A stretch of DNA of 64,000 nucleotides, from contig OZ220732.1 in the NCBI GenBank assembly GCA_965116905.1, positions 4,000,001 through 4,064,000 of the forward strand, read 5' to 3'. The translations under genes and the position numbers were made by a program. The notes beneath the pieces are model-generated. The model saw nothing but the letters and a program-made list of their open reading frames with translations, was not told the origin of the DNA and ran no database searches. Positions 40,196 through 58,465 of the stretch are shown here, piece by piece (position 1 is the stretch's first letter; each line of letters starts with the position of its first letter). This DNA comes from Longimicrobiales bacterium (GTDB taxonomy: Bacteria > Gemmatimonadota > Gemmatimonadetes > Longimicrobiales > Gaopeijiaceae).

Positions 40196-40224
40196 TTGCC
40201 TACCAGCAAGCGGACGTGTATGAT
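40196..40224 (+). promoter_or_regulatory. sigma70-like promoter of the RiPP precursor gene
   Basis: TTGCCT (40196-40201), N17, TATGAT (40219-40224), 50 bp upstream of the ATG; RBS AAGGGAGG. Confidence 0.65.
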
Positions 40225-40274
40225 TGTCTGAGAGTGTTGTCCTGTGTCGAAGTTCAGAACTAAGGGAGGAAGCT

Positions 40275-40526
40275 ATGAGAAGCGGCGACGAAATGTTGCA
40301 GCAAATCGTGGAGAAGTCCGCGCTGGACACGGAGTTTCGGCAACGGCTTCTTACAGATCCAAAGACCGCGATCAGTGGCGAGCTGGGCATTACGATCCCC
40401 GATTCGATGAACATCAGGGTCCATGAGAGCGACATGCAGACGGTGCATCTTGCGCTGCCGCCGGATCCGAACATCACCGAGGAGCAGCTCGAAGCCATCT
40501 CGGCCGGCCTCTGCTGCTGCTGGTAG
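40275..40526 (+). CDS. srpE: NHLP (nitrile-hydratase-like leader) proteusin precursor, core LCCCW
   Basis: Leader IVEKSALDTEFRQRLLTDPK...IRVHE...VHLALPP and double-Gly-type motif ITEEQLEAISAG, then core LCCCW. The symbol is the name recalled for the sponge srp homolog. Confidence 0.93.
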   Translation: MRSGDEMLQQIVEKSALDTEFRQRLLTDPKTAISGELGITIPDSMNIRVHESDMQTVHLALPPDPNITEEQLEAISAGLCCCW

Positions 40527-40667
40527 AGCCCCGTAGTCGGCGAGTAGTCGACTAACAACGCATTCGAGATCGCTCCCATCCGGCGGACATGTTGCCGCCG
40601 TGCTGGTGGATCGTACAATCAATCCGTCTTCTCACTCTGGACCCTGCGGCGCGGGAGGTAGCGACGC

Positions 40668-41924
40668 GTGACGGGCCGGTTATGGCGAATCGGGTGGCGC
40701 AACCTCGGCCGTAACCGGAAGCGAACAGTTCTCACCGCGCTCGGCCTCGCGGTCGGCTACTTTTCCGTGGTGTTCATGGTCGGCTGGGCCGAGGGGGTCT
40801 CGACGGGACTCGTCGAGAACGCCACGTCGCTGGTCAGTGGGCAGATCGAGATCCACGACGCCGACTACCGGCCCGAGCGCAGCCTTTACGAGACCATCGG
40901 CGGACGCGAGGGTGCCGACGTGGCGGACCTCCTGCGCACCATCGAGGCCGATCCCTCGGTCGTGGCCGCCGCCCCGCGCGTGTACGCGAGCGGGCTCGTG
41001 AGTTCCGGCGAGGCGACATCGGCCGGCACTCTGCTCGGCGTCGACCCCGAGCGCGAGCTGGCGCTGACACGTTTTCTGGATCCCCTGGCAGCGGGCCGCC
41101 TGCCTGCCACCGGCCAACACGAAGCCGTTGTGGGAGACGAGATGGCGCGGCAGCTCGAGCTGAGCATCGGGGACGAACTCGTCGTCGTCGCCTCGGCGGC
41201 GGACGGCTCGATGGGCAACGACCTGTACACGGTCACCGGCATCTTCCGGACCGGCCTGCTCGAGTTCGATGCCGGCACCATGGTCATTCCGGTCGCAGAC
41301 CTGCAGACGCTCGTGGTCCTCGATCCGGATCGGGTCCACGAAATCGCAGTCAGCACCGACGATCCGTCGCAAGCCGACCTGACCGCGACCCGCCTCGCAT
41401 CCACCCTTGGAGCCCCCGAGCGGGCGATGTCGGTCGCGCCGTGGACCGAGCTCAATCCGGTGCTTGCCCAGTATGTCGCGCTCGCGGATGCGATGTACTG
41501 GATCTTCATCGTCCTCATCTTTTCAGTCGCCAGCTTCGGCATCGCCAACACGACGCTGATGGCCACCTTCGAACGCCGCCGCGAGTTCGCCGTCATGCTG
41601 GCGATGGGTGCATCGCCGCGGTCCGTGGTGGGCACGGTGCTGTCCGAGGCGGTCGCGACCGGCGTCATCGGGCTGGGCCTCGGGACCGCCGTCACGGCGC
41701 CGCTGTTGATCTGGTTCTCCACGGCGCCGCCCGACATCGGATGGCTCTTCGCAAACCTCACCGTAGAGGGCGTCCTGCTGACGCCGAGTCTCCGGGTGGG
41801 GGCCAACGTACCGGCATGGACCTGGGCGACAATCGGCCTCATCGTCACGGCACTCGTCTCCGCCCTCTACCCGGCAATCCGTGCCGCGCGGGTGCCGCCT
41901 GCCGACACTCTCTCGGGCCTGTAG
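40668..41924 (+). CDS. ABC transporter permease, FtsX/MacB/LolE-like
   Basis: WRNLGRNRKRT, periplasmic domain, NT.LMA.FERRREF..M.A.G, LYPAIRAA. Confidence 0.9.
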   Translation: MTGRLWRIGWRNLGRNRKRTVLTALGLAVGYFSVVFMVGWAEGVSTGLVENATSLVSGQIEIHDADYRPERSLYETIGGREGADVADLLRTIEADPSVVAAAPRVYASGLVSSGEATSAGTLLGVDPERELALTRFLDPLAAGRLPATGQHEAVVGDEMARQLELSIGDELVVVASAADGSMGNDLYTVTGIFRTGLLEFDAGTMVIPVADLQTLVVLDPDRVHEIAVSTDDPSQADLTATRLASTLGAPERAMSVAPWTELNPVLAQYVALADAMYWIFIVLIFSVASFGIANTTLMATFERRREFAVMLAMGASPRSVVGTVLSEAVATGVIGLGLGTAVTAPLLIWFSTAPPDIGWLFANLTVEGVLLTPSLRVGANVPAWTWATIGLIVTALVSALYPAIRAARVPPADTLSGL

Positions 41925-41926
41925 CC

Positions 41927-43204
41927 GTGCTCCTGCGCGTCCTGGTCCGGCTCGCCCTCAGGAACCTGCGCCGTCATCTGCGTCGCACGGTGCTGACTGC
42001 CTCGGCGATGATGGTCGGCGGCGCATTCCTGGTCTGGTCGATGACGATCGATGACGGCAGCCACGAACAGTGGGTCGATTCCGGTGTGCGCATGGGGAGC
42101 GGACACGTGACCATCGAGCGGCCCGAGTACCGGCTGCGCCGCCAGATCGACGACCGGCTGCCGACGGACGTCAGCCGCGCCGCGGAGCAGGCACTGGCCT
42201 CTCCCGAGGTCGCGCGGCACGTCGTGACCGTGTCCGCCAAACTCGGTATCAACGGCCTGGCGAGTTCGGCGGCCGGTGCCCGCCCGGCGGAGATCGTGGG
42301 GGTCGATCCCGTCGCCGAAGCGGCCTTCGGCACAATCGACGATGCGGTGATCGAAGGGCGCTACCTCGAGCCCGATGATCGGCTGGCGGCCTATGTCGGC
42401 GCCGATCTGGCCCGCAGCCTTGGACTCGAGATCGGATCGCGCTTCGTCGTGCAGGCGCAGGGCACCGATGGCGAGATTGCGGGGCAGCTGCTCTACGTCA
42501 TAGGGATCTTCCGCAGTCGCGTGCCCGCCATCGACCAGGCGACGATTCACGTCACGCTCGCGACAGCCGGCGAGTGGCTCGGTTCCGGTAGCGACGTGAC
42601 CAACGTCGCGGTCGTGCTGCAAGGCAGCGGCAGGACCCGGTGGGTCTCCGACCGCCTGGCGCGGGCGCTGGCGGAGCCGGTGGAACGCGGCGAGGCACGC
42701 GTCGTAGAGTGGCGCGAGGCGAACCCTGTCCTGGCGGCAGGGGTCGCGATCGACGAATTCGGCAACTACGTGATTCAGGGGTTCCTGTTCGTCATCATCG
42801 CGTTCGCGATCGTCAACACGGTGCTGATGTCGGTGATGCATCGCCAGCGCGAGTTCGGCGTGCTTCAGGCGCAGGGGCTGACGCCGGGTCAGACGGGCAC
42901 CGTCGTGCTCATCGAAGGCCTCACGCTATCCGCGGTCAGCGGGCTCGTCGGCGTCGGCCTGGGACTCCTGGGCACCTGGTATTTCTTCGGCGACGGTTTC
43001 GACTCGTCGGTCTTCATGCGGGGTATCGACGAGTTGACATTCTCGGGTGCCGCCGTTGATCCCATCATCGTGCCAATCTTCGGGGTACGACGCATTGTCC
43101 AGGTTGTCGCGTTCATTCTCGGCATTGGCATTCTCGCCTCGGTCTATCCCGCGCTGCGCGCCGCCCGGGTCGACGTTACCGAGGCGATGAAGTTCGATCG
43201 GTAG
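41927..43204 (+). CDS. ABC transporter permease, FtsX/MacB/LolE-like (second paralog)
   Basis: ALRNLRRHLRRT, NTVLMSVMHRQREFG, YPALRAA; GTG 2 nt after the previous stop. Confidence 0.9.
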   Translation: MLLRVLVRLALRNLRRHLRRTVLTASAMMVGGAFLVWSMTIDDGSHEQWVDSGVRMGSGHVTIERPEYRLRRQIDDRLPTDVSRAAEQALASPEVARHVVTVSAKLGINGLASSAAGARPAEIVGVDPVAEAAFGTIDDAVIEGRYLEPDDRLAAYVGADLARSLGLEIGSRFVVQAQGTDGEIAGQLLYVIGIFRSRVPAIDQATIHVTLATAGEWLGSGSDVTNVAVVLQGSGRTRWVSDRLARALAEPVERGEARVVEWREANPVLAAGVAIDEFGNYVIQGFLFVIIAFAIVNTVLMSVMHRQREFGVLQAQGLTPGQTGTVVLIEGLTLSAVSGLVGVGLGLLGTWYFFGDGFDSSVFMRGIDELTFSGAAVDPIIVPIFGVRRIVQVVAFILGIGILASVYPALRAARVDVTEAMKFDR

Positions 43205-43210
43205 GAGGTC

Positions 43211-43912
43211 ATGGCAATGAGTAAAACGGCAGCCGCCCGGACCGACGGCGTCTGGAAGGTCTTCCAGCAGGAAGCTGAATCCGTCGAGGCGGTCCGCGAC
43301 GTCAGCCTGACCATAGAGCGTGGCGAGTTCACCGCGCTTGCGGGACCGTCGGGCTCCGGCAAGACGACGCTGCTGAATCTGATCGGTGGCCTGACCAGCC
43401 CCACAAAGGGACGGGTCTGGGTGGCCGGGCACGAGGTGAGCCGCATGTCGACCCGGGATTTGGCGCGGCTACGGCTCGAGGAGGTTGGCTTCGTCTTTCA
43501 GGCCTATAACCTGCTCCCCGTGCTCACGGCATTGGAGAACGCGGAATTCCCGATGCTCCTCCAGGGCGTGCCCGTGAAGGAGCGTCAGGCGCGGGTCCGC
43601 GAACTCTTTGCGCGAACGGGCATGGAAGGGCTCGAAGACCGGCGCCCGGGCAAGCTGTCAGGCGGCCAGCAGCAGCGCGTCGCCGTCGTCCGTGCGGTGG
43701 CTGGCCGTCCGGCCCTCGTGCTTGCGGACGAGCCGACGGCGAACCTCGACTCGGTCACCAGCGAAGCGCTCCTCGATGTCATGGGCGAGCTGAATCGCGA
43801 CCTCGGAGTGACCTTCGTCTTCGCCACCCACGACAGCCGCGTCATGGAGCGGTGCCGGCGTCTGGTCCGCATGGTCGACGGCGCTGTGCGTGACGACGAG
43901 CCCGGATCCTAG
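43211..43912 (+). CDS. ABC ATP-binding protein, LolD/MacB-like
   Basis: GPSGSGKT, GFVFQAYNL, LSGGQQQR, LADEPTANLD, ATHD. Confidence 0.95.
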   Translation: MAMSKTAAARTDGVWKVFQQEAESVEAVRDVSLTIERGEFTALAGPSGSGKTTLLNLIGGLTSPTKGRVWVAGHEVSRMSTRDLARLRLEEVGFVFQAYNLLPVLTALENAEFPMLLQGVPVKERQARVRELFARTGMEGLEDRRPGKLSGGQQQRVAVVRAVAGRPALVLADEPTANLDSVTSEALLDVMGELNRDLGVTFVFATHDSRVMERCRRLVRMVDGAVRDDEPGS

Positions 43913-43933
43913 CAGCCAGCCTGGGTGGCGAGA

Positions 43934-45226
43934 CTAGCAGCCTAGACCCTGGGACACCTGGGCATAGCTGGTAAGCGGGACCGCGCACATCCGATGCCAG
44001 TCCTCCTGGTCGATGACGGGTTGGTTCAACAGTTCAATCATCTCGTCGAAGTCATGGAGCGCGGAGCACCCCACCACCGCCGGGTCCGCTGCCTGCCGGT
44101 GTCGTGGCCAGGCGCGGTCACGAGCATGGCGCCAGAAGCCGCTGTTGTACCTGGAGCCGCACGAGTAGTGCCAGCCGACGAACAGGCCGTAGCGGATCAT
44201 GTTGTTGATGAGGAACCGATTGACCACGGGCGCGTCGCGCTCGAGATGCTCCGGCGGACGGCTGAGGCGCGTCCGGAGCACCATCCCGATCTGCAATTGG
44301 GCGGATACGATCGCCGTTGCCTCGAGCGGCTCCATGAAGGCCGCTGCGTTGCCGATGCGGGCCACGGCACCGTCGTAGATCCGACGGTGGACGAAGTTGG
44401 GAAACCCGATGACGGCGCGCTGCTCAAACTCGGACACGCCGTCGGCCTCGAGGAGCCTGTCAAAATCCGATTCGACGTCGACCAGGCTCGACAGGTTGCC
44501 GTTGAAGACGTACCCGTAGGATGTGTGGGCAGTGAGCGGAATCACGAATACCCAGCCGTGTCGACGCGCAACCGCGCGCGTGTACGTGTGCTGGAGCACC
44601 GGTCCATCCCGCTCTTCGCTGAAGACCGGCGGACAGCGGCGTATGACGGCCGTATCGGTGGGGATGAAGGGAAGGTCGATGTGCTGGTCGGGACGGAGCT
44701 CCCTGGGGAACCCGCGCGCATCGAACACGAGGTCGTACCGTTCCGGCGGCCGGCCCTCGAATTCCACGCGAGCGCCGCCACTCACCCTGGTGATATCGAG
44801 TACCCTCGCATCGATGTGCCGCGCGCGCGTGCCTTCGTGGAGCAGGTCCGCCATCAGGTCGGCGGACAGGTGGTAGGCGTAGGACACCTGCTGCGGCGTG
44901 AAGTAGTGGGTGAAGTCCCGATCGCGTCGGCCCCATCCCTCGAACGCGACACCGTACTTGCGAGTCCCACTCAGGCGCTGCTGTACGGTGTCGTGCGGCA
45001 GACTCGTCAGCTGTTGCAGCTCCCGAACCAGGCTCGGCCAGCTGCCTTCACCGACTCCGATCACCGGGATCCGCGAGTCGTATATGTGGTGCAGCTCGTG
45101 ATCGCTGTCGGGATGAAGACGCGTCACGCTGGCGGCCGCCAGGCACCCTGCGGTCCCTCGCCCCACAACCGCGATCTTCCGTAGGGATTCGCTCTTCCGT
45201 AAGGACTCGGTGCCTGGGTGTATCAC
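43934..45226 (-). CDS. srpI: Flavin-dependent tryptophan halogenase family (putative peptidyl-Trp brominase)
   Basis: VVGRGTAG (GxGxxG), IGVGEGS, TRKYGV (catalytic Lys position), FDARGF, GWVFVIP (WxWxIP variant), IGNAAAFMEPLEAT; GTG start after GGAGG. The symbol is recalled from the srp cluster. Confidence 0.88.
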   Translation of the reverse strand: MIHPGTESLRKSESLRKIAVVGRGTAGCLAAASVTRLHPDSDHELHHIYDSRIPVIGVGEGSWPSLVRELQQLTSLPHDTVQQRLSGTRKYGVAFEGWGRRDRDFTHYFTPQQVSYAYHLSADLMADLLHEGTRARHIDARVLDITRVSGGARVEFEGRPPERYDLVFDARGFPRELRPDQHIDLPFIPTDTAVIRRCPPVFSEERDGPVLQHTYTRAVARRHGWVFVIPLTAHTSYGYVFNGNLSSLVDVESDFDRLLEADGVSEFEQRAVIGFPNFVHRRIYDGAVARIGNAAAFMEPLEATAIVSAQLQIGMVLRTRLSRPPEHLERDAPVVNRFLINNMIRYGLFVGWHYSCGSRYNSGFWRHARDRAWPRHRQAADPAVVGCSALHDFDEMIELLNQPVIDQEDWHRMCAVPLTSYAQVSQGLGC

Positions 45227-45367
45227 CCCAAATGCCCTCCACGACCGTCGACTGCGGGACTCTTCGATGTGCCGCGGACAGCAAGCTAACACGATCTTCG
45301 CATCATCGCCGTCGGCGCGGCTCTCGTCGTTTCCTTGGGGGACGAGGTCTGCACCGTTCACCCGAGG

Positions 45368-45376
45368 TGTTATACT
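45368..45376 (+). promoter_or_regulatory. Extended -10 promoter (TGnTATACT) for the NHLM export/maturation operon
   Basis: TG-T-TATACT in the divergent intergenic region, 57 bp before the GTG at 45433. Confidence 0.5.
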
Positions 45377-45432
45377 ACCCGGCGAGACCGGTCCGTCCCT
45401 GCTTGATCGTGATGAGGAGTCTGTGTGGAGCC

Positions 45433-45984
45433 GTGTTCAATAACCCGCTTGGTTCGTTTCACAATACCGTTGCCGAAGCAAAGGAAGAACGCGAGCAACT
45501 CGACCGTCTGCTGACGGTTTCCACACCGCGAGAGCGCCTGCTTGTCACAGTCATCGCTCTTGTGTTGGTCATCTTCATCACCTGGCTCTTTTTCGGCAGC
45601 GTAGCCCGTAGCCTTGCGATCGACGGCGTACTCGAGGAGTCCGGCCAAAACCTGTCCGAAGCCGCCCAGTCAGTGCAGGCGCTGGTCTGGATCGAGAACG
45701 ACGTTCTGCCCGAGGTCAGGGCCGGGATGCCGGCGTCGATCGAACTGGGCGGGGCGGATGGAGACGCGGGCACGATTGGCGGAGAGATTACGATGATTTC
45801 CGCTGTCCGCCTGCCCGAGCTTCCAGCGGCCTTCGAGTCCGCAGTGCCGGCCTCCGTCCATCGCGTCCAGATCGCGCTCGACGAAAGCCCCGACTCTTCC
45901 TTCGTTGCGGGCCGGGAATGCCGGATCGTCATCGAAATCGGCACCCAGGCTCCGATCGCACTCCTGCGACTGGGGCAACCATAG
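45433..45984 (+). CDS. Short NHLM-system secretion (HlyD-like) accessory protein
   Basis: EQLDRLLTVSTPRERL, one TM ending WLFFGSV...DGVL, and a C-terminal beta domain ending QAPIALL. At 183 aa it lacks the long coiled coil. Confidence 0.72.
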   Translation: MFNNPLGSFHNTVAEAKEEREQLDRLLTVSTPRERLLVTVIALVLVIFITWLFFGSVARSLAIDGVLEESGQNLSEAAQSVQALVWIENDVLPEVRAGMPASIELGGADGDAGTIGGEITMISAVRLPELPAAFESAVPASVHRVQIALDESPDSSFVAGRECRIVIEIGTQAPIALLRLGQP

Positions 45985-45985
45985 C

Positions 45986-48199
45986 ATGCCGTCGATCGCC
46001 TTCAGAGGAGTTGGCGACAAGAAAGCCGCCGGGTTCAAGGCAAAGCACAGGATCACCACGCCCATTGTGCTGCAGGTGCATGCGTCGGAGTGCGGTGCCG
46101 CCTGCCTCGGCAGCATCCTCGGCTACTTCGGACGCTGGGTTCCGCTGACCGAGCTGCGGGAAAGATGCGAAGTGAGTCGAGACGGAAGCAGTGCGGCGAG
46201 CATCGTGCGCGCCGCCAGACATTATGGTCTCGAATCCAGCGGACTCAGTTTGCGCGCCGATCAACTGAAAAAGCTGCCGTTGCCGCTGATCGTGTTCTGG
46301 CAATTCAGTCATTTCCTCATCGTCGAGGGGTTCGACGGCCGCAACTTCTATCTCAATGATCCGTCCACGGGACGGCGCAAGCTTTCCGCCGAGGAGTTCA
46401 CCCGGGGCTACAGTGGCATTGCGCTCCGATTCAAGCCGGGCCCCGACTTCAAACCCGGCGGTGAACGGCCCGGACTGGTCAGACAACTGCACGCCCTGCT
46501 CGCCGGATCATGGGGCGTGCTCACCTGGGTGATCGCGTGCGGCCTCATGTTGACGCTGCTGGCCCTCATTGTCCCCGCATCTCTGGGCGCATTCGTGGAC
46601 GATGTGCTGGAAGACCGGGGGCCCTGGGGCGGCATCGTGACGGCACTGCTCGGCGGCGGCGTCCTCGTCTATATCCTGTCCCTGCTCAAGCACCGGTTCC
46701 TGAAGCGACTCGCAGTCCGGATTTCGGTGACCGGCTACAGTCGTGGCTTGTCGCGGCTGCTGCGGTTGCCGGTGGAGTTCTTCGAACACCGGCTCGTGGG
46801 CGATCTGACGGATCGAGTCTCGTCCATCGACAGGATCGCGAGGAATCTGACGGAGCAGTTTCTTGTGCTCGTTATCGACATGGGAATGAGCGCCGTGCTG
46901 CTTGCTGCCATGTTGGTCTACGACGTCCGGCTCACACTGGTCGTGCTCGTTCTGGCCGTTATGCATGGCGTGCTGGCGCACTTTCTGAACGGCGTCAGAG
47001 CCGTTCGAAGCCAGGCGATGAGACGCGAACAGGGACTGCTGATCGGCATCGGCATGCAGATGCTGAGCCATGCCGACAACCTGCGCATGACGGGATCGGA
47101 CGACCATTTCTTTTCGCGGTGGACCGGTCATCAGGCGCGCGAACTGCATGCGCGCCAGCGCTACTCGGAGCTGGGCTCCGTCAATGCCGCGCTTCCGGGT
47201 CTGATCGTCGCCCTTCGAGGCGCGGCGATCCTGGGCATCGGCGGAAGTCTGGTCCTGGCCGGGGAAATGACCCTGGGGGCGCTGGTCGCGTTCTACATCC
47301 TGAGCGAAATGTTCCTGGCGCCGGTCGGGCGATTCCTGGAGTTCGCCGAGAAGCGCCAGGCCCTCGAAACCGATCTGCAGCGACTCGAAGACATCTCCAG
47401 GACCGCCGAGGACCCCGCCCTCATCCGCCAAAGTCAGCACTCCGAGTCGATTCCGACTTTCAAGGGCCAGCTTCAGCTCGCCGGCCGGCTTGAGCTGCGA
47501 GACGTCACCTTCGGGTTCAACAAGAGCCGGCCGGCTCTCATCAAGGACTTCAACCTCCTGATCAGGCCGGGGCAGCGGGTTGCCGTGGTCGGTCCGAGCG
47601 GTTCCGGCAAGTCGACCCTCGCGCGTCTGATTGCCGGTGTCTACCAGCCCTGGTCGGGCGACATCCTGTTCGATGGCTATCCGCGGGATGAGATTCCCGA
47701 TGGGGTGCTGCGGCAGTCCATCTCCATGGTGGATCAGGAGGTGGTGCTCTTTTCCGCGTCCGTGCGCGACAACATCACCCTGTGGAACCCCGCCGTTCCG
47801 GACGAGGCCATCTTCGCGGCGGCGCGCGACGCCCGGATCCATGACGAAATCCTGCTTCGGCCGGATGGGTACGCCACGCGGGTCGATGAGGGCGGCGTGA
47901 ATTTCAGCGGCGGCCAGCGGCAGCGGCTGGAGATCGCCCGCGGGCTGGTGGGCGATCCCACGCTCCTCATTCTGGATGAGGCGACCAGCGCCCTCGATGC
48001 CGCGACGGAGGAATACGTCGATGATGCCCTGCGCCGTCGGGGTGTCACCTGCCTGATCGTGGCGCACCGGCTGAGCACCGTGCGGGACAGCGACGAGATC
48101 ATCGTGCTCGACAAGGGCGTCGAAGTGCAGCGCGGGACGCACGACGAGCTGATGGGGGATCGGGACGGCACCTACTACAAGCTGGTCAGATCCGGCTGA
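45986..48199 (+). CDS. NHLM-type peptidase-containing ABC transporter (C39 + TMD + NBD)
   Basis: LQVHASECGAACL (Cys), WQFSHF (His), LNDP (Asp); GPSGSGKST, FSGGQRQR, ILDEATS. Confidence 0.95.
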   Translation: MPSIAFRGVGDKKAAGFKAKHRITTPIVLQVHASECGAACLGSILGYFGRWVPLTELRERCEVSRDGSSAASIVRAARHYGLESSGLSLRADQLKKLPLPLIVFWQFSHFLIVEGFDGRNFYLNDPSTGRRKLSAEEFTRGYSGIALRFKPGPDFKPGGERPGLVRQLHALLAGSWGVLTWVIACGLMLTLLALIVPASLGAFVDDVLEDRGPWGGIVTALLGGGVLVYILSLLKHRFLKRLAVRISVTGYSRGLSRLLRLPVEFFEHRLVGDLTDRVSSIDRIARNLTEQFLVLVIDMGMSAVLLAAMLVYDVRLTLVVLVLAVMHGVLAHFLNGVRAVRSQAMRREQGLLIGIGMQMLSHADNLRMTGSDDHFFSRWTGHQARELHARQRYSELGSVNAALPGLIVALRGAAILGIGGSLVLAGEMTLGALVAFYILSEMFLAPVGRFLEFAEKRQALETDLQRLEDISRTAEDPALIRQSQHSESIPTFKGQLQLAGRLELRDVTFGFNKSRPALIKDFNLLIRPGQRVAVVGPSGSGKSTLARLIAGVYQPWSGDILFDGYPRDEIPDGVLRQSISMVDQEVVLFSASVRDNITLWNPAVPDEAIFAAARDARIHDEILLRPDGYATRVDEGGVNFSGGQRQRLEIARGLVGDPTLLILDEATSALDAATEEYVDDALRRRGVTCLIVAHRLSTVRDSDEIIVLDKGVEVQRGTHDELMGDRDGTYYKLVRSG

Positions 48200-51138
48200 T
48201 GCGGGACACGAGGCCGGAGCACACGTCCATTGCGGAACTCGCCACCAGCGCGGGCGAGTCCGTGCCCTGCGCCGGCAACCTGCCCGTGAAGCTCGACGAC
48301 CCGGACTCCGTCTGGTTCATCGACGAGGGCGCCGTCAATCTGTTCCTGGTCGAATTCAGGGACGGGTTGGATCATGCGGCACCCCAGCACCTGCTCCGCC
48401 GCGAAGCGGGCTGGCTGCTGCCGGGCGTCGCACCCAACGAACCGCACGGGGCGGAAGATACCACGCTCAGCCTGGTCGCCAAGGGATCGCCGGGCACCAT
48501 TCTGAAGCGCCTGCCGGCATCCCTGCTCTCCGAGGTCGATCCGGCGGAGCTGGCGGAACAGACGGAAACCTGGCTGGCCGCGATCACGGACACCCTCTCG
48601 CGCTTTGCGAGTCACCGTCCACGGCCGACGGCGCTGGCCGAGCCCGGTCTGACACGGAGCCTCGCCCCCTGTACGCTCTCCGTACGACGAGGCGTCGTAT
48701 GGGTATCCGAACCCCCACGCGGCGCCAGCCTCTTCATGGACCTGGTCGACCAGGCGGCACTTACCGGAGGGAGCGGCCCGCACGAAGCGCTGATACCGCT
48801 GACGCGGGCAAGCTGGCTCACGCTCTCGGACGAGGTAACGCTCTCGGCCAGTTCGACCGAGACACTGGCACGGCAGGGCACCCTGCTCTCGGCGCTCGCA
48901 TCCTTTCACGCGGTCGCCTTCGCCGTGGAGCGCCTGAACCGCGTACTGGCCGTAGTCGACCACGCGAATCTCGAACGCGCGCGGACCACGAGCCGCTACG
49001 CGGCCGAGAGAACTGCGCGGCAGCGGCTTTTCAACATCTATGACCTGCCGATCGACCGGGACGCGAGTGTCGAGGACACGTCGCTGGCGGACGCGCTGCA
49101 GCCGATCGGACGCCGTGAAGGGATTGATTTCAAGATCCCCGTGCGCCCGGGATCCTCCGGTGCCCCGGTCAGCCTCGTCGACGTCCTCGTCGCTTCAGGC
49201 GTGCGCGCCCGGCGCGTGCGGTTCACGAACGAGGGCGCCTGGTGGCGGGGCGACAGCAACGCGATGCTGGCGTTCCGCGCCGAAGGCGGCCAGCCTGTGG
49301 CGCTCCTGCCGGGATGGTTCGGGCGCTACCGGGAATTCGACCCGGTCAGCAAGCGTAGTGTCCGGATGACGGCGGATCGTGCCGCCGCGCTGGCGGACGA
49401 GGCCTGGGTGTTCTACCGGCCGCTGCCCGAGGGGAACGTGAGGCCGGCGGACCTGCTGAGATTCGCGCTGCGTGGATCGGCCGCGGATCTGGCGCGGCTG
49501 GTGATGGCCGGCCTTCCGGGCGGCCTGATCAAGCTGGTGCCCGCACTCGCGCTCGGGTTCGTCGCAAACCAGACGGCGGGCGGCGGAACCGCCGGAGCGG
49601 TCTATGCCGCGGCCGTGGCGGTGGCGGGCTTCGGCGTGCTCGGCGCCCTGCTGCACCTGCTTCAATCCACGGCGATGACGCGGCTCGAGGGGCGCTCGGC
49701 TTCGCGCGTCGAAGCGGCGTTCTGGGACCGCCTCATGCGCCTTCCGCCAAGCATTCTGCACCGCCATCCGTCGGGCGATCTGGCCATGTCGGGGATGACG
49801 TTCCAGAATCTCCGCGACGGGTTGCAAGGCGTCGTTGCCGACGGCCTGCTATCGATCCTCTTTCTGCTTCCGGTTCTTGGTGTCATCTTCCTCTACGATG
49901 CCACCCTCGGGGCCATCGCCCTCGCCTTCAGCCTGGTTTCGCTCCTGATCACGGTTGTCCTCGGACTGCGCCAGGTTCCCCCCTGCGGGCGGATGATCCG
50001 CGCGGCGCGGCGCGTCTCCGGCCGGTTGTTCCAGATCGTGGGCGGCATAAGCAGACTGCGTGTGGAAAACGCGGAAGCGTCCGCTTTCGCCATGTGGGCG
50101 CGGGACTACCGGGAGCAGAAACGCGCCGAGCTCGAAATGGCCGGGCTCGAGGGACATTCGCGCGCATTCGGCGCCGCGCTCCCCTTTCTTGCCGCCGGGG
50201 TCCTGCTGGCGGTCGTGGCCGTGGGCGACAGGGACCTTCCGGTGGGCGATTTTCTCGTCGTCTACCTCGTCCTCATCGCCTTCCAGTACGCCATCGCCCG
50301 ACTCGGCGAATCCCTTGGCACGGTCGCCGCCATGCTCCCGGGGTTCGACCAGATGCGCCCGCTCCTCGCCGCGGCTCCCGAGACCGAGGCCGAAGGAGCG
50401 CCGGTCGAGTATCTGGGCGGCGACATTCTCTTCGACCGCATTTCCTTCCGGTACGATCCCGACGGGCCGCTGATCCTGGACGATGTCACGATCCGCGCCC
50501 GCCCCGGAGAATTCATCGCGATCGCGGGTGAGTCCGGCGCCGGCAAGAGCACCCTCTTCCGGCTGGCGCTCGGATTCGACCGGCCCACCGCCGGCGCGGT
50601 CTATTACGATGGACGCGACCTGAGGCACCTGAACCTGAAGCAGGTGCGCCGCAGAATCGGCGCGGTGCCGCAATCCGTCGGCCTGCATCCCCTCGATATC
50701 TGGGACAATCTCGTCGGTCACCACGATAAGGTGGCGAGTGACGAGGTATGGGCGGCGGCGCGAGTCGCCAACGTCGAAGAAGAGATCAAGAGCATGCCGA
50801 TGGGCATGATGACCATGGTCGGCACGAGCGGAAGCGTCCTGTCGGGCGGCGAGAGTCAACGTGTCACTATTGCCCGGTCGGTGATCGGCAGCCCGCAGAT
50901 CATGCTCTTCGACGAGGCCACCAACTGGCTGGACAACGAGAGCCAGGCCAATGTCATGCGGAATCTCAACGCCCTGACCTCGACCCGGGTTGTTATCGCG
51001 CACCGCTTGTCCACCCTGGAACAGGCCGATCGCATCTACGTGCTGCAGGCCGGAAAAGTCGTACAGAGCGGCTCCTTCGACGAACTCTTGGAGGGCGACG
51101 GGGTGTTCAGGGAGTTGGTGAAAAGGCAGATCGCCTAG
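48199..51138 (+). CDS. NHLM-type second ABC transporter subunit (no peptidase)
   Basis: N-terminal cNMP-binding-like segment (VWFIDEGAVNLF), SGVRARRV...WW, FYRPLP, TMD, GESGAGKST, LSGGESQR, FDEAT; coupled to the previous gene. Confidence 0.92.
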   Translation: MRDTRPEHTSIAELATSAGESVPCAGNLPVKLDDPDSVWFIDEGAVNLFLVEFRDGLDHAAPQHLLRREAGWLLPGVAPNEPHGAEDTTLSLVAKGSPGTILKRLPASLLSEVDPAELAEQTETWLAAITDTLSRFASHRPRPTALAEPGLTRSLAPCTLSVRRGVVWVSEPPRGASLFMDLVDQAALTGGSGPHEALIPLTRASWLTLSDEVTLSASSTETLARQGTLLSALASFHAVAFAVERLNRVLAVVDHANLERARTTSRYAAERTARQRLFNIYDLPIDRDASVEDTSLADALQPIGRREGIDFKIPVRPGSSGAPVSLVDVLVASGVRARRVRFTNEGAWWRGDSNAMLAFRAEGGQPVALLPGWFGRYREFDPVSKRSVRMTADRAAALADEAWVFYRPLPEGNVRPADLLRFALRGSAADLARLVMAGLPGGLIKLVPALALGFVANQTAGGGTAGAVYAAAVAVAGFGVLGALLHLLQSTAMTRLEGRSASRVEAAFWDRLMRLPPSILHRHPSGDLAMSGMTFQNLRDGLQGVVADGLLSILFLLPVLGVIFLYDATLGAIALAFSLVSLLITVVLGLRQVPPCGRMIRAARRVSGRLFQIVGGISRLRVENAEASAFAMWARDYREQKRAELEMAGLEGHSRAFGAALPFLAAGVLLAVVAVGDRDLPVGDFLVVYLVLIAFQYAIARLGESLGTVAAMLPGFDQMRPLLAAAPETEAEGAPVEYLGGDILFDRISFRYDPDGPLILDDVTIRARPGEFIAIAGESGAGKSTLFRLALGFDRPTAGAVYYDGRDLRHLNLKQVRRRIGAVPQSVGLHPLDIWDNLVGHHDKVASDEVWAAARVANVEEEIKSMPMGMMTMVGTSGSVLSGGESQRVTIARSVIGSPQIMLFDEATNWLDNESQANVMRNLNALTSTRVVIAHRLSTLEQADRIYVLQAGKVVQSGSFDELLEGDGVFRELVKRQIA

Positions 51139-51236
51139 CAGTCCGTGGATAAACCCACGCGAGCACCGAGAGCGGCGAGGCGCCGGGCCGGATGCATTCG
51201 CCGCTCGAATGCCGCGGGGGTTTGTTCACGGGCTGC
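51138..51236. repeat. ~100-bp long-hairpin / MITE-like element
   Basis: Terminal inverted repeats GCAGTCCGTGGATAAACCCACGCG and CGCGGGGGTTTGTTCACGGGCTGC (20/24 matches; three mismatches are G-U compatible); inner stem GAGCGGCGA/TCGCCGCTC. Confidence 0.7.
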
Positions 51237-51265
51237 CTGATCCGAATCCCTCTCCGGAGACATCG

Positions 51266-52564
51266 ATGAACGGATCGATTGACGCGCACACCCTCGTATC
51301 GAGAGCCGACAAGGACAGCGACTTTCGCGAACGTCTTCTCCGGCACCCCAGGGAAACCGTCGAGAAGGAATTCGGCGTGACGCTGCCGGAAGACCATGAG
51401 ATTCACGTACACGAGGAGACCTATGGCGCGACACATGTGGTGCTTCCGCCGCGGAACAGGTTCAGCGAGGCCGAGCGGGAGGCGGCCAGGACCGGCAGGG
51501 CATCGCTCGAGTATCTTCGGAGTACTCTCCACGATCCCGCACCGCCCCTTCGTTCTCCGGCACCGAAACGAGGCGAAGTCCGAAGCGGCGGGGCCGGCTC
51601 CGAGGCGCTTGCAGAGGCGGCGAGGGAAGGGATCCGCCGAGGGCTTGCCTTCCTGGAATCCACAATCGACGAGAATGGGGCTTGGCACTGCATCCGGTTC
51701 AACGTTGCCGACCCGGACATTCCCAGGCACTTCGAGAGGCCTCCTTTCGTGTCGGCTCTCTGCGCGCTCGCCCTTGAGAGATCCGATGAGCCGCGGGCCA
51801 GGGCGATATGCACGGCGACGAAGGCGTATCTCATCGACACCATCGAGTATCCCGGACTGTGGCGATACTACCGTCACCTGCCCCCGGATCTCGACAGTAC
51901 CTCGCTCTGTGCGATGGTTATCGGGACGCACCCCTGGATCTGGCTCGGACGGAATGTTCCCGGGATACTGGCGAATCGCGACGAGGAGGGCCGCTTCATG
52001 ACCTGGGTGCTGGCGGAAGACGAACCCGATGTCGTGTCGCCGTTTCGCATCGAGGCCGACCCCGTCGTCAATGCGAACGTCATCGCCTGGCTGGGCGACC
52101 GTCCGGAAACCAGGGATGCCCAGCGATGGTTGGAACACCTGGTGACCGATGGGAGCCTGGAGGGCTCGTCGAAATGGTATCCCGACACGATCTCGATCCA
52201 CTATGCGATCGCCCGCGCGACGGTTCGCGCAAAGCCCGCCCTCGAGGCGTTGCGCCCGATGCTCGCAGATCGTATCCTCGGCCTCCGTGACCGGAAGGGA
52301 GGATTCGGCAACGTTCTTCAGACCGCTCAGGCGGTGTCGGCGCTCTACAGTGTCGGAAGCCTCGGGCGCATCGACGTGAAGCGGGAGGTGGAGGGGCTGA
52401 TGAACTCGCAGCGCGGGGACGGCAGCTGGCCGGAGCTGCTCGCGTTCGGCGACCAATCGTTGAAGTGGGGTTTGGTGGGGCAGATCGGGCATGGCTCCGA
52501 GGCCGTGACCTCCGCGTTCTGTATCGAGGCCCTGGAGTGTCTCGTCGAAGGGCTTGGGGCCTGA
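51266..52564 (+). CDS. NHLP-leader domain fused to a prenyltransferase/squalene-cyclase-repeat (class II terpene cyclase-like) domain
   Basis: Residues 1-77 align with the precursor leader (DSDFRERLLRHP...EFGVTLP...IHVHEE...HVVLPP). The rest has QW-like repeats (FLESTIDENGAW, LRDRKGGFG, MNSQRGDGSW), PPDLDSTS at the DxDD position, VVNANV and GSEAVTSAFCIEAL. Confidence 0.8.
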   Translation: MNGSIDAHTLVSRADKDSDFRERLLRHPRETVEKEFGVTLPEDHEIHVHEETYGATHVVLPPRNRFSEAEREAARTGRASLEYLRSTLHDPAPPLRSPAPKRGEVRSGGAGSEALAEAAREGIRRGLAFLESTIDENGAWHCIRFNVADPDIPRHFERPPFVSALCALALERSDEPRARAICTATKAYLIDTIEYPGLWRYYRHLPPDLDSTSLCAMVIGTHPWIWLGRNVPGILANRDEEGRFMTWVLAEDEPDVVSPFRIEADPVVNANVIAWLGDRPETRDAQRWLEHLVTDGSLEGSSKWYPDTISIHYAIARATVRAKPALEALRPMLADRILGLRDRKGGFGNVLQTAQAVSALYSVGSLGRIDVKREVEGLMNSQRGDGSWPELLAFGDQSLKWGLVGQIGHGSEAVTSAFCIEALECLVEGLGA

Positions 52565-52566
52565 GC

Positions 52567-54888: not shown

Positions 54889-54895
54889 GGAGAAC

Positions 54896-56008
54896 ATGGA
54901 TACCGACGCGGCCGTCGCACTGACCCAGGACCGTCTCGCCGAGGAGGGCGACACGATGGGTGAGCTGCTCGGGCACTTCCGAAATCGAATCTCGCCGGTC
55001 CTGATCGGAGATCCGCAGTGGGAGCGCATACTCGAGCGCGCCGGAAAGCTCCCCATCACAATGGGCGCGCTGCCATTCGGTTTCGAACTGCCGCTGCATG
55101 CAAGCGAGCCCAGGGCGGACTTCGGCGTCTCCCTCGCGAGCGGAACGAGAACGGCGGCCTTTTTCCAAGCGCGCGCACGCACCGACGCGACGGATGAGAC
55201 CGCGAGGGTGATCACGCGGCTCTTCGGCCGGATGGAGACGGAAGACTCGCCCCTGCGTGGGATTGTCGGCCGCAAACTGATGCTGGAATACGATATCGGC
55301 TCGGCAGGAGACGGTGAGCGTTCACTTCCGGGAATGTTCCTCCGGCCCGGTGAACGCCCGATTCTCGGCGCCCGCGGCCAGGTGGATGATGTCCGTGCGG
55401 TCGCGGACGCGCTGTTCTCCTGCGCAGGCTGGGAGATGAGCGGCCCCGAGCGCGAGAACATCGAACGGGTCTACCTGGCACAGCCGGGAGACACGCGCAT
55501 GGATTCGTTCGGTGTGTTCCCGTCGCGCTCGCGGTTCATCCGCCTGGCGATCATGGGCTTCAGATCGCGGCACGCGACGTGGTGCTATCTCGAAGACGCC
55601 GGCTGGCCGGGTCATATCCCGGCTGTCGACTCCCTGATCGCGCGCTTCGACGAGCGCGCGAGCATTCGCAGGACCGGGGTGAACATCGATGTGCGGGAGG
55701 AGGGCGTCGGACCGACGCTCGGCCTCACGCTCATCGTCAAGCAACGTTATACGAAGGACTCGCGCTATTGGCTCGACGGCCTGACCGATTGGCAGCCGTT
55801 CCTGGAGGCCCTGGGCCATGAGGACCTTGTCGTTCCGGAGAAGCTCGGGGCGCTTGCCGGCTGGGTCTCGAAGCCGACAACGCTCTTTGGGAAGTCCGGG
55901 CGGTTCGTGCTGCTGCGTGGCATTCACCATATCAAGCTGGTCGTATCCGGAGACCGGCTTCGACAAGCCAAGGCCTACGTGTTCATGGTGCTTTCCGGGG
56001 CGGTGTAG
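54896..56008 (+). CDS. Hypothetical protein; candidate ABBA (PT-barrel) peptide prenyltransferase
   Basis: GAGGAG RBS directly after YcaO; five apparent beta-hairpins separated by helical segments. The CDS is secure; the function is inference. Confidence 0.6.
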   Translation: MDTDAAVALTQDRLAEEGDTMGELLGHFRNRISPVLIGDPQWERILERAGKLPITMGALPFGFELPLHASEPRADFGVSLASGTRTAAFFQARARTDATDETARVITRLFGRMETEDSPLRGIVGRKLMLEYDIGSAGDGERSLPGMFLRPGERPILGARGQVDDVRAVADALFSCAGWEMSGPERENIERVYLAQPGDTRMDSFGVFPSRSRFIRLAIMGFRSRHATWCYLEDAGWPGHIPAVDSLIARFDERASIRRTGVNIDVREEGVGPTLGLTLIVKQRYTKDSRYWLDGLTDWQPFLEALGHEDLVVPEKLGALAGWVSKPTTLFGKSGRFVLLRGIHHIKLVVSGDRLRQAKAYVFMVLSGAV

Positions 56009-56031
56009 CCCGCCGGCAGCCCGTGGGCGGG
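56009..56031. terminator. Small hairpin between convergent genes at the end of the RiPP operon
   Basis: CCCGCC-N11-GGCGGG; no U-tract. Confidence 0.3.
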
Positions 56032-56032
56032 A

Positions 56033-58465
56033 TTAGCGTCCCGTCCCGAAGTTCGGCGCGAGCGTCTCGATCCCCGCGGCGGCGCCCGATGCGGTTTCCT
56101 CGATCACCGCGGCGAGCGCATCGAAATCGTCCACCCCGCAGAGGCCGGCGATCGTGGCCCTGGCTCCGGTGGCCGCCGATTCGACCTCGAACCCCTCGTC
56201 CGCGACAAGCCGCAGCGCGCCGCGGAGATTCCGCCACAGCGCCGCCGCCGCCGCGAGCCGCTCGGCGGCATCCTCAGTGATCAACCCACGATCGCCCGCC
56301 GCCCGGAAAGTGTGCTCCGCGTCGCCCGCCGGACGTGCCGCCGCATCGCCGCCGGGCGCCATGCGCAGGAACAGCGCGGCGCGTTCGATGTCTCGAAGAC
56401 CTCCCCGCATCGTGGCGATCGACTCCAGGTCCGGTACGCCGGTTTCGGCGGCATGCTCTCCGGGCTTGCGCAATTCAGCCAGCAGCATCTCGCGAACCGA
56501 AGGTCCGCCCAGCGCCTCGCGCAGCCCTACGGACACCCGTTCCGCAACGTCCTCGTCGCCCGATCCCCACACGCACCGGGCCCGCGCCAGACCCACCGGA
56601 TCCCATCCCGAACCGGGGTTGCGGAGTTGTTCGGCGAATGCGTCAAGCGGCTGGATCTCGCCCGCCCCGCCACGCGTGAACGATTGGGGCGACAGCAGCA
56701 GGTTGTTGCGGGTCAGCGCGCGCAGCGCCTTCCGGAAGCGGCCGCACAGTTTCCGATAGTGCCTGGCCGGGGTTCCCTCGTACACGAACCGGATGTCGAG
56801 CGTCTCGCCCGGCATCGCTTCTCCGCTCGCCAGGGGTCCCTCCACGACGACCGCCACGCCGCCGCTGCCCTGCGGCACACCGCGATCGGCAAAGTCCTCC
56901 TCTACCGCGGACAGCACGGTGGCGATGGAGGCCTCCCCGACGCGTGACAACGCCGTCACCGCCTCGGCGATCGACAAGCTCCCGCGCATCGTGTGCACCG
57001 CGATCTGGAAGACCTTGCCGTTCGACCACTCGCGCGCCGCATCCACCGCCTCGCTGGCGTCCTGCACGTGAGTGTCGGCAAGCTGGGCCTTCATCTCGGC
57101 CACGCCGAGTTCGTGGGTCCAGTACAGGCGTGCCAGTCCGCACCGGGCAATCGCCTCGGATTCCGGGTCCGACAGGAAGCCCTCCGGGAGCTCCAGATCC
57201 GTGAACTCCCGCTCCCTGAGCATGTCGAGCAACACCGGGGCACGGTTGATCCATCCGGCAATGCGAGGAGCGGCGGCGTGAATCTCGGCGATCGCGTCGA
57301 ATGCGTCGGGGCGTGCCGCGAACGCCCGGCTGTCATAGGCGCTCCAGTCCTTGATGTCGGGATAGAACTGCGCCCGCTGAAGATCGAGCAGGGGGTCGAT
57401 GGTCTGGAACCACCGCTTGGGGAAGAGGGCCAGGCCGTTCATCTGAATGTAGCTGCCCGGCAGCTGCGGCGAGGCGGCCTCGTTGTGATGCTGAAGCAGC
57501 GGATAGCGCCGGTTCGACGTGTGGTGGTCGGCGTGGCGCTGCATGTTGTAGTACAGCCAGTTGGTGAACTTGTAGGCCGCGCTCCAGGCGTGCCGCGGCT
57601 TGACGGGCTCGAACCGGCCGGCCGGCGTGAGGACCCGTCGCAACCCGTAGTGCTGCACATAGTTGCTGATCTTCATCGAGAATACGACGTTGCCGCACAG
57701 AACCACGTAGACCAGGGCTGCCCACGGACCGCCCATCCAGAGTATGATCCCGTACCAGAAGATGAGCTGCACGGCGTAGCGCCAGAACGCGTTCGTATGG
57801 TGCCATGCCGGCAACTGGCGACGCGTCAGGCGGCGGCGTTCGAACCGCCAGGCCCCCAACAGGTTGTTCGCCACCTCCGCGGGCAGGTATCGCCAGAAGC
57901 TCAGACCCTTCGGAGAGGACCCCGGGTCCCGGGGCGTGCACACCCACGGATGATGAATGTAGACGTGCTCGGTTGCATAGTGCGGGTAGGAGACGGAAGC
58001 CAGCAGGAACTCGCCGAGGCGACGCTCCCAGAGAGCGCGGCGGTGGACCAGCTCGTGGCCGACGATGAAGACGGTCTGTCCCACCATCGTGAGAATCACG
58101 GCCACGCACCAGACTTCCCACAGCGCCAGATGATCGGAAACCAGTGCCTGCCAGAGCGCGAAGATGAACGTGGCCGGCCAGAGCACCGCCCAGAGCCAGA
58201 GCGAGAGCTTGTACAGAAACAGCTGGCTCTCGCTGGTGGTGGCCGGATCCATGTTCCGCTCCTCCAGGCCGAATATCCTGTCGAAGCGGTCCGCGAGCGC
58301 GTAGAAGACCAGCGGCACCGCGATCCACCAGCCACCGAACACCGCGGCGCACGCGACGAGCGGAAAGATCGCAAGGGGCGCGAAGTGTGGGAGCGCATTC
58401 GCAACGGAAGCCTCGACGATTCTCCGTTCCATGGCCACGGGGGGACTCGTACTGTGTGCTTCCAT
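56033..58465 (-). CDS. AlkB-type membrane di-iron monooxygenase fused to a degenerate GlnE-like adenylyltransferase domain
   Basis: AlkB boxes GHELVH, EHVYIHH, NYVQHYGL, NMQRHADHH, PQLP.SY. C-terminal ~420 aa resembles GlnE AT (P.LLDML, ALSRVGEA.I..VL..VEEDF, VAVVVEGPLA..E, LDIRFVY, ARAR, RGGLRDIE). ATG at 58465 inferred. Confidence 0.78.
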   Translation of the reverse strand: MEAHSTSPPVAMERRIVEASVANALPHFAPLAIFPLVACAAVFGGWWIAVPLVFYALADRFDRIFGLEERNMDPATTSESQLFLYKLSLWLWAVLWPATFIFALWQALVSDHLALWEVWCVAVILTMVGQTVFIVGHELVHRRALWERRLGEFLLASVSYPHYATEHVYIHHPWVCTPRDPGSSPKGLSFWRYLPAEVANNLLGAWRFERRRLTRRQLPAWHHTNAFWRYAVQLIFWYGIILWMGGPWAALVYVVLCGNVVFSMKISNYVQHYGLRRVLTPAGRFEPVKPRHAWSAAYKFTNWLYYNMQRHADHHTSNRRYPLLQHHNEAASPQLPGSYIQMNGLALFPKRWFQTIDPLLDLQRAQFYPDIKDWSAYDSRAFAARPDAFDAIAEIHAAAPRIAGWINRAPVLLDMLREREFTDLELPEGFLSDPESEAIARCGLARLYWTHELGVAEMKAQLADTHVQDASEAVDAAREWSNGKVFQIAVHTMRGSLSIAEAVTALSRVGEASIATVLSAVEEDFADRGVPQGSGGVAVVVEGPLASGEAMPGETLDIRFVYEGTPARHYRKLCGRFRKALRALTRNNLLLSPQSFTRGGAGEIQPLDAFAEQLRNPGSGWDPVGLARARCVWGSGDEDVAERVSVGLREALGGPSVREMLLAELRKPGEHAAETGVPDLESIATMRGGLRDIERAALFLRMAPGGDAAARPAGDAEHTFRAAGDRGLITEDAAERLAAAAALWRNLRGALRLVADEGFEVESAATGARATIAGLCGVDDFDALAAVIEETASGAAAGIETLAPNFGTGR

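Follow-up and report, generated by a model that had tools for sequence, protein, structure and literature searches.

What does an srp cluster make? Gene clusters of this type, which encode a RiPP (a peptide made on the ribosome and modified after its translation) in sponge bacteria, contain 'several genes of unknown function' according to the accessible part of one account (PMC11832590), and the literature examined here holds no structure of a final srp product. We considered the question for a cluster at positions 40196-58465 of a 64,000 nt window, the whole stretch of DNA that was analysed (contig OZ220732.1, positions 4,000,001 to 4,064,000 of the forward strand), which comes from the one-contig, 4.2 Mb genome (97% complete) of a Longimicrobiales bacterium. 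Besides the genes expected of srp, the cluster encodes a protein with the fold of a prenyltransferase (PT), a leader-fused protein with the fold of a class II terpene cyclase, and an AlkB-like fusion protein, and all three stay with the cluster across many phyla. The reading that we prefer, with a probability of about 0.5, is that the product is Leu-(thiazoline)3-6-bromo-Trp carrying on its Trp a cyclised, probably C15, isoprenoid that has been oxidised by the AlkB-like protein.

Identity of the cluster

Clusters with SrpE, SrpC and SrpI were reportedly described by Nguyen et al. in JACS in 2021. The original prediction had placed the present locus among them, and the likeness of its precursor and halogenase to SrpE and SrpI bears this out: judged by sequence, it is an intact member of the published srp family of sponge bacteria. 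All parts that had been named were found within 40196-58465 by open reading frame (ORF), Pfam and NCBIfam analysis, including two export systems and a convergent AlkB fusion.

Compared by eye with the sequences in the supplement of PMC10286304, the 83 aa NHLP (proteusin) precursor (40275..40526, + strand; TIGR03793, E 2e-19, above cut-off) is identical to SrpE at 68/83 residues. It has the leader motif ITEEQL, which is of the (L/I)TEEQL type, and a cleavage site after AG that precedes the core LCCCW. The 430 aa, flavin-dependent Trp halogenase of SrpI type (43934..45226, - strand; PF04820, E 1.3e-41) matches SrpI at about 346/418 residues (about 83%, again by eye) and retains the positions that match K84, which is the catalytic Lys, Y102 and Y110. 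At its N-terminus it differs from SrpI in a short stretch (45177-45212, - strand) where five to six codons are duplicated in tandem. As expected of srp, there is a YcaO cyclodehydratase with a fused RRE/ThiF part. This SrpC-type wHTH(RRE)-ThiF-YcaO protein with a Pro-rich C-terminus (about 52567-54888, + strand, start codon uncertain) matches PF21084 and PF02624 (E 9e-95) and scores above cut-off for TIGR03882/TIGR03604. The relatives of the locus also show the spread over many phyla of sponge-associated bacteria that is an srp trait. With the srp clusters in the available text of PMC10286304, PMC10858898, PMC12537861 and bioRxiv 10.1101/2023.06.09.544420, the locus thus shares precursor, LCCCW core, YcaO, brominase, transporters and distribution. 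In that text the PT-, cyclase- and AlkB-like genes have no assigned function; the original 2021 paper and its supplement may annotate them. A literature search, which covered neither the primary srp paper nor Hubrich 2024, found no paper that connects srp to prenylation or cyclisation.

Some of the chemistry of the pathway is established. In the accessible part of PMC10286304, SrpC forms three thiazolines, and SrpI adds bromine at C6 of the C-terminal Trp. Because the precursor and halogenase are about 82-83% identical to the published ones, we infer the same reactions for the orthologues here. The available part of a preprint counts 191 srp-type precursors in many classes, ranks them among the most transcribed biosynthetic genes in sponge bacteria, and calls their ecological role elusive (bioRxiv 10.1101/2023.06.09.544420).

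Conservation of the additional genes

When GTDB genomes were searched with the leader-fused protein, 221 matches were found, of which the best 80 were analysed. They come from Gemmatimonadota, Alpha- and Gammaproteobacteria, Nitrospira, Acidobacteria, Binatia, Latescibacterota and other groups. Full flanks of 10 kb were available for 54 loci, of which 53 have PT, 52 YcaO, 50 the precursor, 45 AlkB and 44 the halogenase; the corresponding numbers for all 80 are 69, 70, 61, 64 and 52 (plain counts without a statistical test, in which kin are not independent). Nineteen gene arrangements occur in the 54 loci, at 53-95% identity, the commonest having AlkB between the cyclase and YcaO. As the same genes keep together in rearranged order across many phyla, the arrangement is not due to chance. 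Wherever a precursor was in view at a cyclase locus, its core ends in Trp (61/61).

Whole genomes give the same picture. PT was found in 49/50 cyclase-bearing genomes (50 of the 78 intended were searched). Fifteen of 301 Gemmatimonadota-level genomes have an SrpE-type precursor; in 13 of the 15, a close copy of the cyclase occurs together with one of PT, and none of the 301 has a close copy of one of these two without the other. From metagenomes, 27 precursor-anchored loci were collected (L125, a 13-residue match, was excluded from 28), and seven of the nine with full flanks carry cyclase and PT. In its own genome each of PT, cyclase and AlkB is single-copy and occurs only at this locus. The extra genes are therefore conserved with the precursor, as the original prediction had supposed, and the PT, cyclase and AlkB genes belong to the srp cluster.

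Orphan SrpE-type precursors, with no tailoring genes in the available flanks, were seen at L105, L115, L118 and L119, the last two having the core LCCWW. Divergent second precursors lie near the srp clusters of L048, L062/L199 and L117, with cores WCCCGN, WCCCGQ and MCCCGI. In G549, a genome with such a second precursor, a second PT is found about 5 kb away.

The prenyltransferase-fold protein

The 370 aa protein encoded at 54896..56008 (+ strand) had been described as a PT-barrel-like hypothetical protein, and its structure model and fold comparisons agree with this. The model, made from 96 homologues (alignment A1, 96 chosen sequences), has a pLDDT of 95 and consists of repeating helix-strand-strand units. 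All Foldseek rows shown for it are ABBA prenyltransferases. VIA gave 19 chains at Z of at least 8, all of them ABBA prenyltransferases with indole types leading, and the next, unrelated row has Z 5.7; the top rows are MpnD (Z 17.2, root-mean-square deviation 4.4, 300 aligned), DMATS1 (15.9) and CymD (15.4). Among the 96 family members there was no hidden Markov model match to the described families Trp_DMAT, PTase_Orf2 and DUF5838, and the atlas leads stood at 0.88-0.90 with low recognition. Residues E64, D75, D133, R211, R216, H345, K347, K359 and Y361 are kept in 87-95 of 96 homologues; by analogy, these conserved charged and aromatic residues may serve diphosphate and metal binding.

Each of the eight stretches fetched around further PT copies contains an NHLP precursor, and for this reason the family looks like a RiPP prenyltransferase family. 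A predicted complex of PT with the precursor lends weak support to their pairing: the score was 0.32 against 0.00 for the best control, the runs agreed in at least 80% of contacts, and the partner had a pLDDT of at least 76. The same mark was reached by 116/157 solved and 2/215 mismatched pairs, and at scores of 0.60 or below by 18/157 and by both mismatches. This would be slight evidence for a behaviour like that of MppC, a leader-dependent lanthipeptide Trp-C5 geranyltransferase that needs the structured nucleus of its leader (PMC12715784, accessible part), and unlike that of SrpI, which does not need it (PMC12537861, accessible part). The PT of the locus shares with MppC the ABBA fold and a long structured leader; MppC differs in having a lanthipeptide substrate and no cyclase.

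Paralogues of PT also lie beside NHLP precursors with unrelated cores (L200, L201, L202, L205), among them a long, helical-looking core with Trp and a Trp-Cys-Cys core accompanied by an FAD oxidase. In G272 (L131-L132), a LanM cluster with Trp-containing NHLP cores is accompanied by a distant member of the PT family. An 851 aa protein, P0392, matches both the YcaO and the PT profile and is either a real fusion or an assembly frameshift.

The leader-fused cyclase-fold protein

The protein encoded at 51266..52564 (+ strand) had been taken for a leader-fused protein of terpene-cyclase fold, and a model and alignment uphold a class II fold with an intact acid motif. Residues about 1-80 match the NHLP leader (TIGR03793, 48.6 bits against a cut-off of 50.9). 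The model (pLDDT 80.7) shows the fold of a one-domain class II terpene cyclase with a single helical beta-domain, and in VIA it matched the drimenol synthase AsDMS (Z 31.3, root-mean-square deviation 2.3, 282 aligned) and MstE (Z 26.4). Each of the top ten VIA rows, at Z 21-31, is either an entry with the class II terpene cyclase fold or an unannotated relative, and the first glycoside hydrolase follows at 18.

D210 aligns with the general acid D323 of AsDMS. In an alignment of 84 chosen sequences (A2), D208-L-D210-S is invariant in 84/84, as are many aromatic residues. AsDMS binds phosphate through R368, R370, R415 and Y416 (PMC12232559, available part). In a register set by eye these positions correspond to R261, E263, K303 and W304, each invariant in 84/84, so that one ligand is kept, one is conservatively replaced and two are lost (E263, W304). 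With such a partial loss, a prenylated peptide would be a more fitting substrate than a free diphosphate. Like AsDMS (cyclase domain, 9mhs) and MstE (6sbb), the protein combines a single beta-domain helical barrel with a general acid of the DxD(T/S) type in the matching place of the alignment; it differs from them in having no HAD phosphatase domain, in its largely replaced phosphate-binding residues, in an identity of about 20%, and in its N-terminal pseudo-leader.

The pseudo-leader retains the folded nucleus of an NHLP leader and has lost the L(X)4L motif. At -7 it has Arg (83/84) and at -4 Ala (82/84), where the precursor has Leu and Ile, which makes it likely that it is neither cleaved nor recognized like the substrate. 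Our hypothesis is that it acts as a docking module. Leaderless homologues of the cyclase stand directly beside PT in two unrelated NHLP clusters, L203:2285-10266 and L204:7415-17106, with no YcaO in either stretch and with cores that end in Trp or Tyr. The L204 homologue is 39% identical and keeps none of the Arg ligands, and that of L203 has ExD as its acid motif. These clusters are candidates for simpler terpene-peptide hybrids.

The AlkB-like fusion protein

The convergent gene at 56033..58465 (- strand) encodes an 810 aa AlkB-like/GlnE-like fusion (PF00487, PF03710, PF08335). The AlkB part occupies the first 360 residues and matches PDB 8f6t with E 7e-51 over 312 residues, and all of its His boxes, in common with those of alkane 1-monooxygenase (8f6t, 8sbb), are conserved in 95% or more of 62 sequences. 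It differs from that enzyme in its setting in a RiPP cluster and in having, instead of rubredoxin, a C-terminal GlnE-like half. The latter appears, from its sequence, to be catalytically degenerate: the variants printed from the 62 sequences are variable in the region and lack the paired Asp of the acidic motif that we take as canonical for GlnE nucleotidyltransferases.

Sibling clusters with Trp-less cores

A sibling cluster was found in seven Gemmatimonadota genomes, six of which are of one genus (G100, G200, G247, G388, G385, G374 and G372, with loci L126, L127/L162, L128, L157/L163, L158/L164, L159/L166 and L161, respectively). Its cores have no Trp (LCCCG in six, LSCCA in one), and its PT and YcaO are 37-38% and 64-66% identical to those of the locus. 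PT is present in 7/7, an adjoining AlkB in 5/7, an FAD oxidase in 6/7 and a polyprenyl synthase in 3/7, together with C39-ABC and RND exporters. With the genome of the window as positive control, neither the cyclase nor the halogenase was found in the sibling genomes (completeness 91-97%). Since these siblings keep PT, the PT family can work without Trp, and Trp as the srp acceptor is a conjectural part of our reading. At the same time the siblings support isoprenoid chemistry and tie AlkB to PT rather than to Trp; taken with the 61/61 Trp-ending cores, they tie the cyclase and the halogenase to an aromatic C-terminus.

In polyprenyl synthases a small residue at the fifth position ahead of the first Asp-rich motif goes with a C20 product, and by this rule the sequence of the sibling-cluster synthase suggests such a product. 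A further relative is the cluster L198:4051-19999 of a Nitrospira genome (G555), which has a precursor with an RCCC core, YcaO, AlkB, a methyltransferase, MMPL, an amine-oxidase-family gene and two PTs on either side of an MpaB/rubber-oxygenase-family gene; the genome also has a full srp cluster nearby. The polyprenyl synthase of three siblings and this rubber-oxygenase-family gene between two PTs are what link the family to isoprenoids.

Proposed pathway and alternatives

In the pathway that we propose, YcaO would cyclodehydrate the three Cys of LCCCW and the halogenase would brominate Trp at C6. The PT, for which the fold is seen, would likely prenylate the C-terminal Trp in a leader-dependent manner, the isoprenoid probably being farnesyl. 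From its fold and acid motif we infer that the leader-fused cyclase would then start cyclisation by protonation from D210, leading to a drimane-like ring system. AlkB would oxidise the product, probably on the isoprenoid, and the C39 protein would cleave between AG and L and export the peptide, with the LolCDE-like system likely lifting a lipophilic product from the membrane. The final product very probably carries an isoprenoid, and it is likely that the product carries a cyclised one. For 79Br, the predicted [M+H]+ values are 651.088 without an isoprenoid, 855.275 with C15, 871.270 with C15 and one O, and 923.338 with C20.

The donor is less clear. No polyprenyl synthase lies within 10 kb in the 80 cyclase loci. 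The genome itself has two, of which we take one to be IspA-like and one long-chain-like by motif rules, and a gene like that for geranylgeranyl diphosphate synthase was not found in it. Together with the drimane cyclase as nearest structure, this weakly favours C15. Tentatively, and with considerable doubt about the whole, we extend the proposal as follows: srp would make a bromoindole-sesquiterpenoid tri-thiazoline hybrid, the cyclase would have captured a non-cleavable copy of the leader for docking, and the Trp-less sisters, with a gene of their own like that for geranylgeranyl diphosphate synthase, would make linear geranylgeranylated thiazoline lipopeptides with the isoprenoid at a non-aromatic site.

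Several observations weigh against our reading. The PT has no match in Pfam, NCBIfam or PDB, searched with the single sequence and with a profile, and is only 7-17% identical to its fold matches. A PT of the family is kept with Trp-less cores in seven genomes, and the RCCC cluster has two PTs. The paralogue cluster L201 has a core ending in Ile-Tyr-Tyr, two PTs and no cyclase in its 20 kb, so that an aromatic core end is not sufficient for the cyclase. Two of the nine metagenome loci with full flanks are orphan precursors, and two genomes with an SrpE-type precursor (G292, G166), both fragmented assemblies with the precursor near contig ends, gave no match to cyclase, PT or halogenase. Rubredoxin (PF00301) was not found in the 97% complete genome, which leaves the electron donor of AlkB unexplained. 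Finally, the only two grounds for C15 are a chain-length rule and likeness to the nearest structure. As to its product, then, the original prediction stands in its srp identity, in the PT and cyclase folds and in the conservation of the genes; it is qualified by the Trp-less siblings and by the precedent of NctPC, discussed below.

These points bear differently on the alternatives. Rather unlikely, in our estimate, is a product in which the isoprenoid is carried by a nucleophile common to xCCCx cores (the carboxylate at the C-terminus, the thiol of a free Cys or, once cleavage has occurred, the N-terminal amine) and is then cyclised. The PT in 7/7 and AlkB in 5/7 Trp-less siblings, the RCCC cluster, and the family-conserved charged residues common to both PT types would all be accounted for. 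Muscoride has a C-terminal prenyl ester. The ABBA enzymes AgeMTPT and MusF1/2 modify the amino terminus of linear azole peptides (PMC10373908, accessible part), and the partly modified mixtures that SrpC yielded in E. coli make a free Cys possible (PMC10286304, accessible part). However, identity between the two PT types is only 37-38%, with differences in the segments that line the barrel, so that their acceptors may differ, and the cyclase tracks an aromatic C-terminus (61/61 loci, and L203 and L204 as well). Moreover, six of the seven Trp-less genomes are of one genus and thus represent about two or three independent events, and a leader-bound substrate has no free N-terminus. We consider it improbable that the order is reversed, so that the cyclase, in the manner of AsDMS or copalyl-type cyclases, would begin with a free prenyl diphosphate and PT would transfer the cyclic unit. 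AsDMS, the closest match in both structure and sequence, does cyclise free farnesyl diphosphate, but two of its four phosphate ligands are lost here, the L204 homologue keeps no Arg, and the fused pseudo-leader points to peptide machinery. Drimenyl diphosphate, which is not allylic, would also be a poor donor for PT.

The remaining alternatives dispense with one or more of the proposed steps. It has no better a chance than that reversed order that the peptide is prenylated and stays uncyclised, the cyclase-fold protein being a hydratase, an isomerase or a scaffold that organizes the enzymes through its leader-like domain. A shared fold proves no function, the N-terminal domain is a well-conserved leader mimic, and the siblings manage without such a protein; yet the DxD acid motif and many aromatics are invariant in 84/84, and the ten best VIA rows (Z 21-31) are of the class II cyclase fold or its kin against 18 for a glycoside hydrolase. 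Very improbable, finally, is a product that is the brominated tri-thiazoline pentapeptide and nothing more, with the PT-, cyclase- and AlkB-like genes as passengers or in other roles. The published reconstitution, in which SrpC or MprC/D and SrpI alone were used, gave only cyclodehydration and bromination (PMC10286304, accessible part), and orphan precursors exist (L105, L115, L118, L119). Against this stand the persistence of the three genes through 19 arrangements, seen at 53-95% identity in 54 loci that belong to many phyla, their single copies in the genome at this one place, and the NHLP precursors beside PT paralogues in 8/8 stretches.

Relation to known systems

Both the srp cluster itself and RiPPs with cyclised isoprenoids are already known. 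The prenyltransferase-cyclase maturases NctPC and ChrPC were reportedly described by Hubrich et al. in Chem in 2024. In the accessible part of PMC13290415 (section 2.3), NctPC geranylgeranylates Trp and cyclises the chain. The locus has in common with these systems, as far as that source goes, a ribosomal peptide pathway that combines an ABBA prenyltransferase with a one-domain class II cyclase like MstE, with Trp as the proposed acceptor (PMC13290415). It differs in that PT and cyclase are encoded separately, on either side of YcaO, in the NHLP pseudo-leader of the cyclase, in the five-residue thiazoline/bromo-Trp core, and in the AlkB-type oxygenase. A search of proteins of 707-2015 aa for PT-cyclase fusions gave one match, which bears YcaO, and says little about whether such fusions occur elsewhere.

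Once functions are proposed for the three conserved genes that had no name, the question of the srp product becomes directly testable, with four candidate masses and a Br/S3 isotope pattern. If our reading is true, RiPP chemistry would gain PT and cyclase as a split system, an enzyme fused to a leader mimic, and tailoring by an AlkB-type protein. On the more doubtful extended proposal, srp and its Trp-less sisters would form a modular family of terpene-peptide hybrids that was overlooked because searches used the unprenylated mass, and srp would be a source of such hybrids that ranks with the most widespread and most transcribed peptide pathways in sponge microbiomes.

Other genes of the region

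The nearest relatives of the cluster region are Gemmatimonadetes/Longimicrobiales, and sponge-metagenome runs contain close relatives of the window stretch. All 30 of 30 bins were covered at 85% likeness by contigs from one DNA run and from three metatranscriptome runs on sponges, the latter belonging to two studies, in a comparison that gives no gene ranking and had no silent control stretch. Upstream of the precursor lies a weak sigma-70-like promoter match (40196..40224, + strand), a consensus match only, with 9/12 matches; five sigma-70-like sites occur in the region, against 2.0 +/- 1.3 in shuffles.

Both predicted export systems are present by family matches, one LolCDE/MacB-like and the other formed by the C39-ABC exporter and a second ABC exporter. 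The former consists of a LolC/E-MacB-like permease (40668..41924, + strand; MacB_PCD and FtsX, with TIGR02212 below cut-off), a second LolC/E-like permease (41927..43204, + strand; FtsX) and a LolD-like ATPase (43211..43912, + strand; Pfam and NCBIfam matches). The latter follows a short, 190 aa HlyD-like NHLP secretion protein (45412..45984, + strand), which matches TIGR03794 weakly and has relatives of equal length. It comprises the C39 peptidase-ABC exporter (45986..48199, + strand; PF03412; TIGR03796, 833 bits, near cut-off), in which Cys, His and Asp motifs were located, and the second NHLP-type ABC exporter subunit (48199..51138, + strand; TIGR03797, 666 bits, near cut-off). Lipid-type exporters occur beside many cyclase loci (MMPL in 28/80, LolA-like in 18/80, RND in 8/80, or a LolCDE-like set as here), and their presence in addition to C39-ABC would suit a lipophilic product.

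Between the precursor and AlkB, no two neighbouring genes lie more than 185 bp apart. The gene list is therefore complete, with no room inside for a further gene such as an azoline dehydrogenase, and thiazolines rather than thiazoles are to be expected. Shadow ORFs, among them a long one that overlies the halogenase on the + strand, were dropped for their codon-position GC and lack of matches. Two neighbours were considered and not counted as members: a prolyl oligopeptidase directly upstream of the precursor (37984-40164, + strand), which occurs in 2/80 loci, both close relatives, and an adjoining TetA-like major facilitator superfamily transporter (58573-59766, - strand), which occurs in 0/80 at the set threshold and scores below every NCBIfam tetracycline cut-off. 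Farther on, at 61360-63666 (- strand), the window encodes an ankyrin-repeat protein with acidic low-complexity inserts, a type that is common in sponge symbionts.

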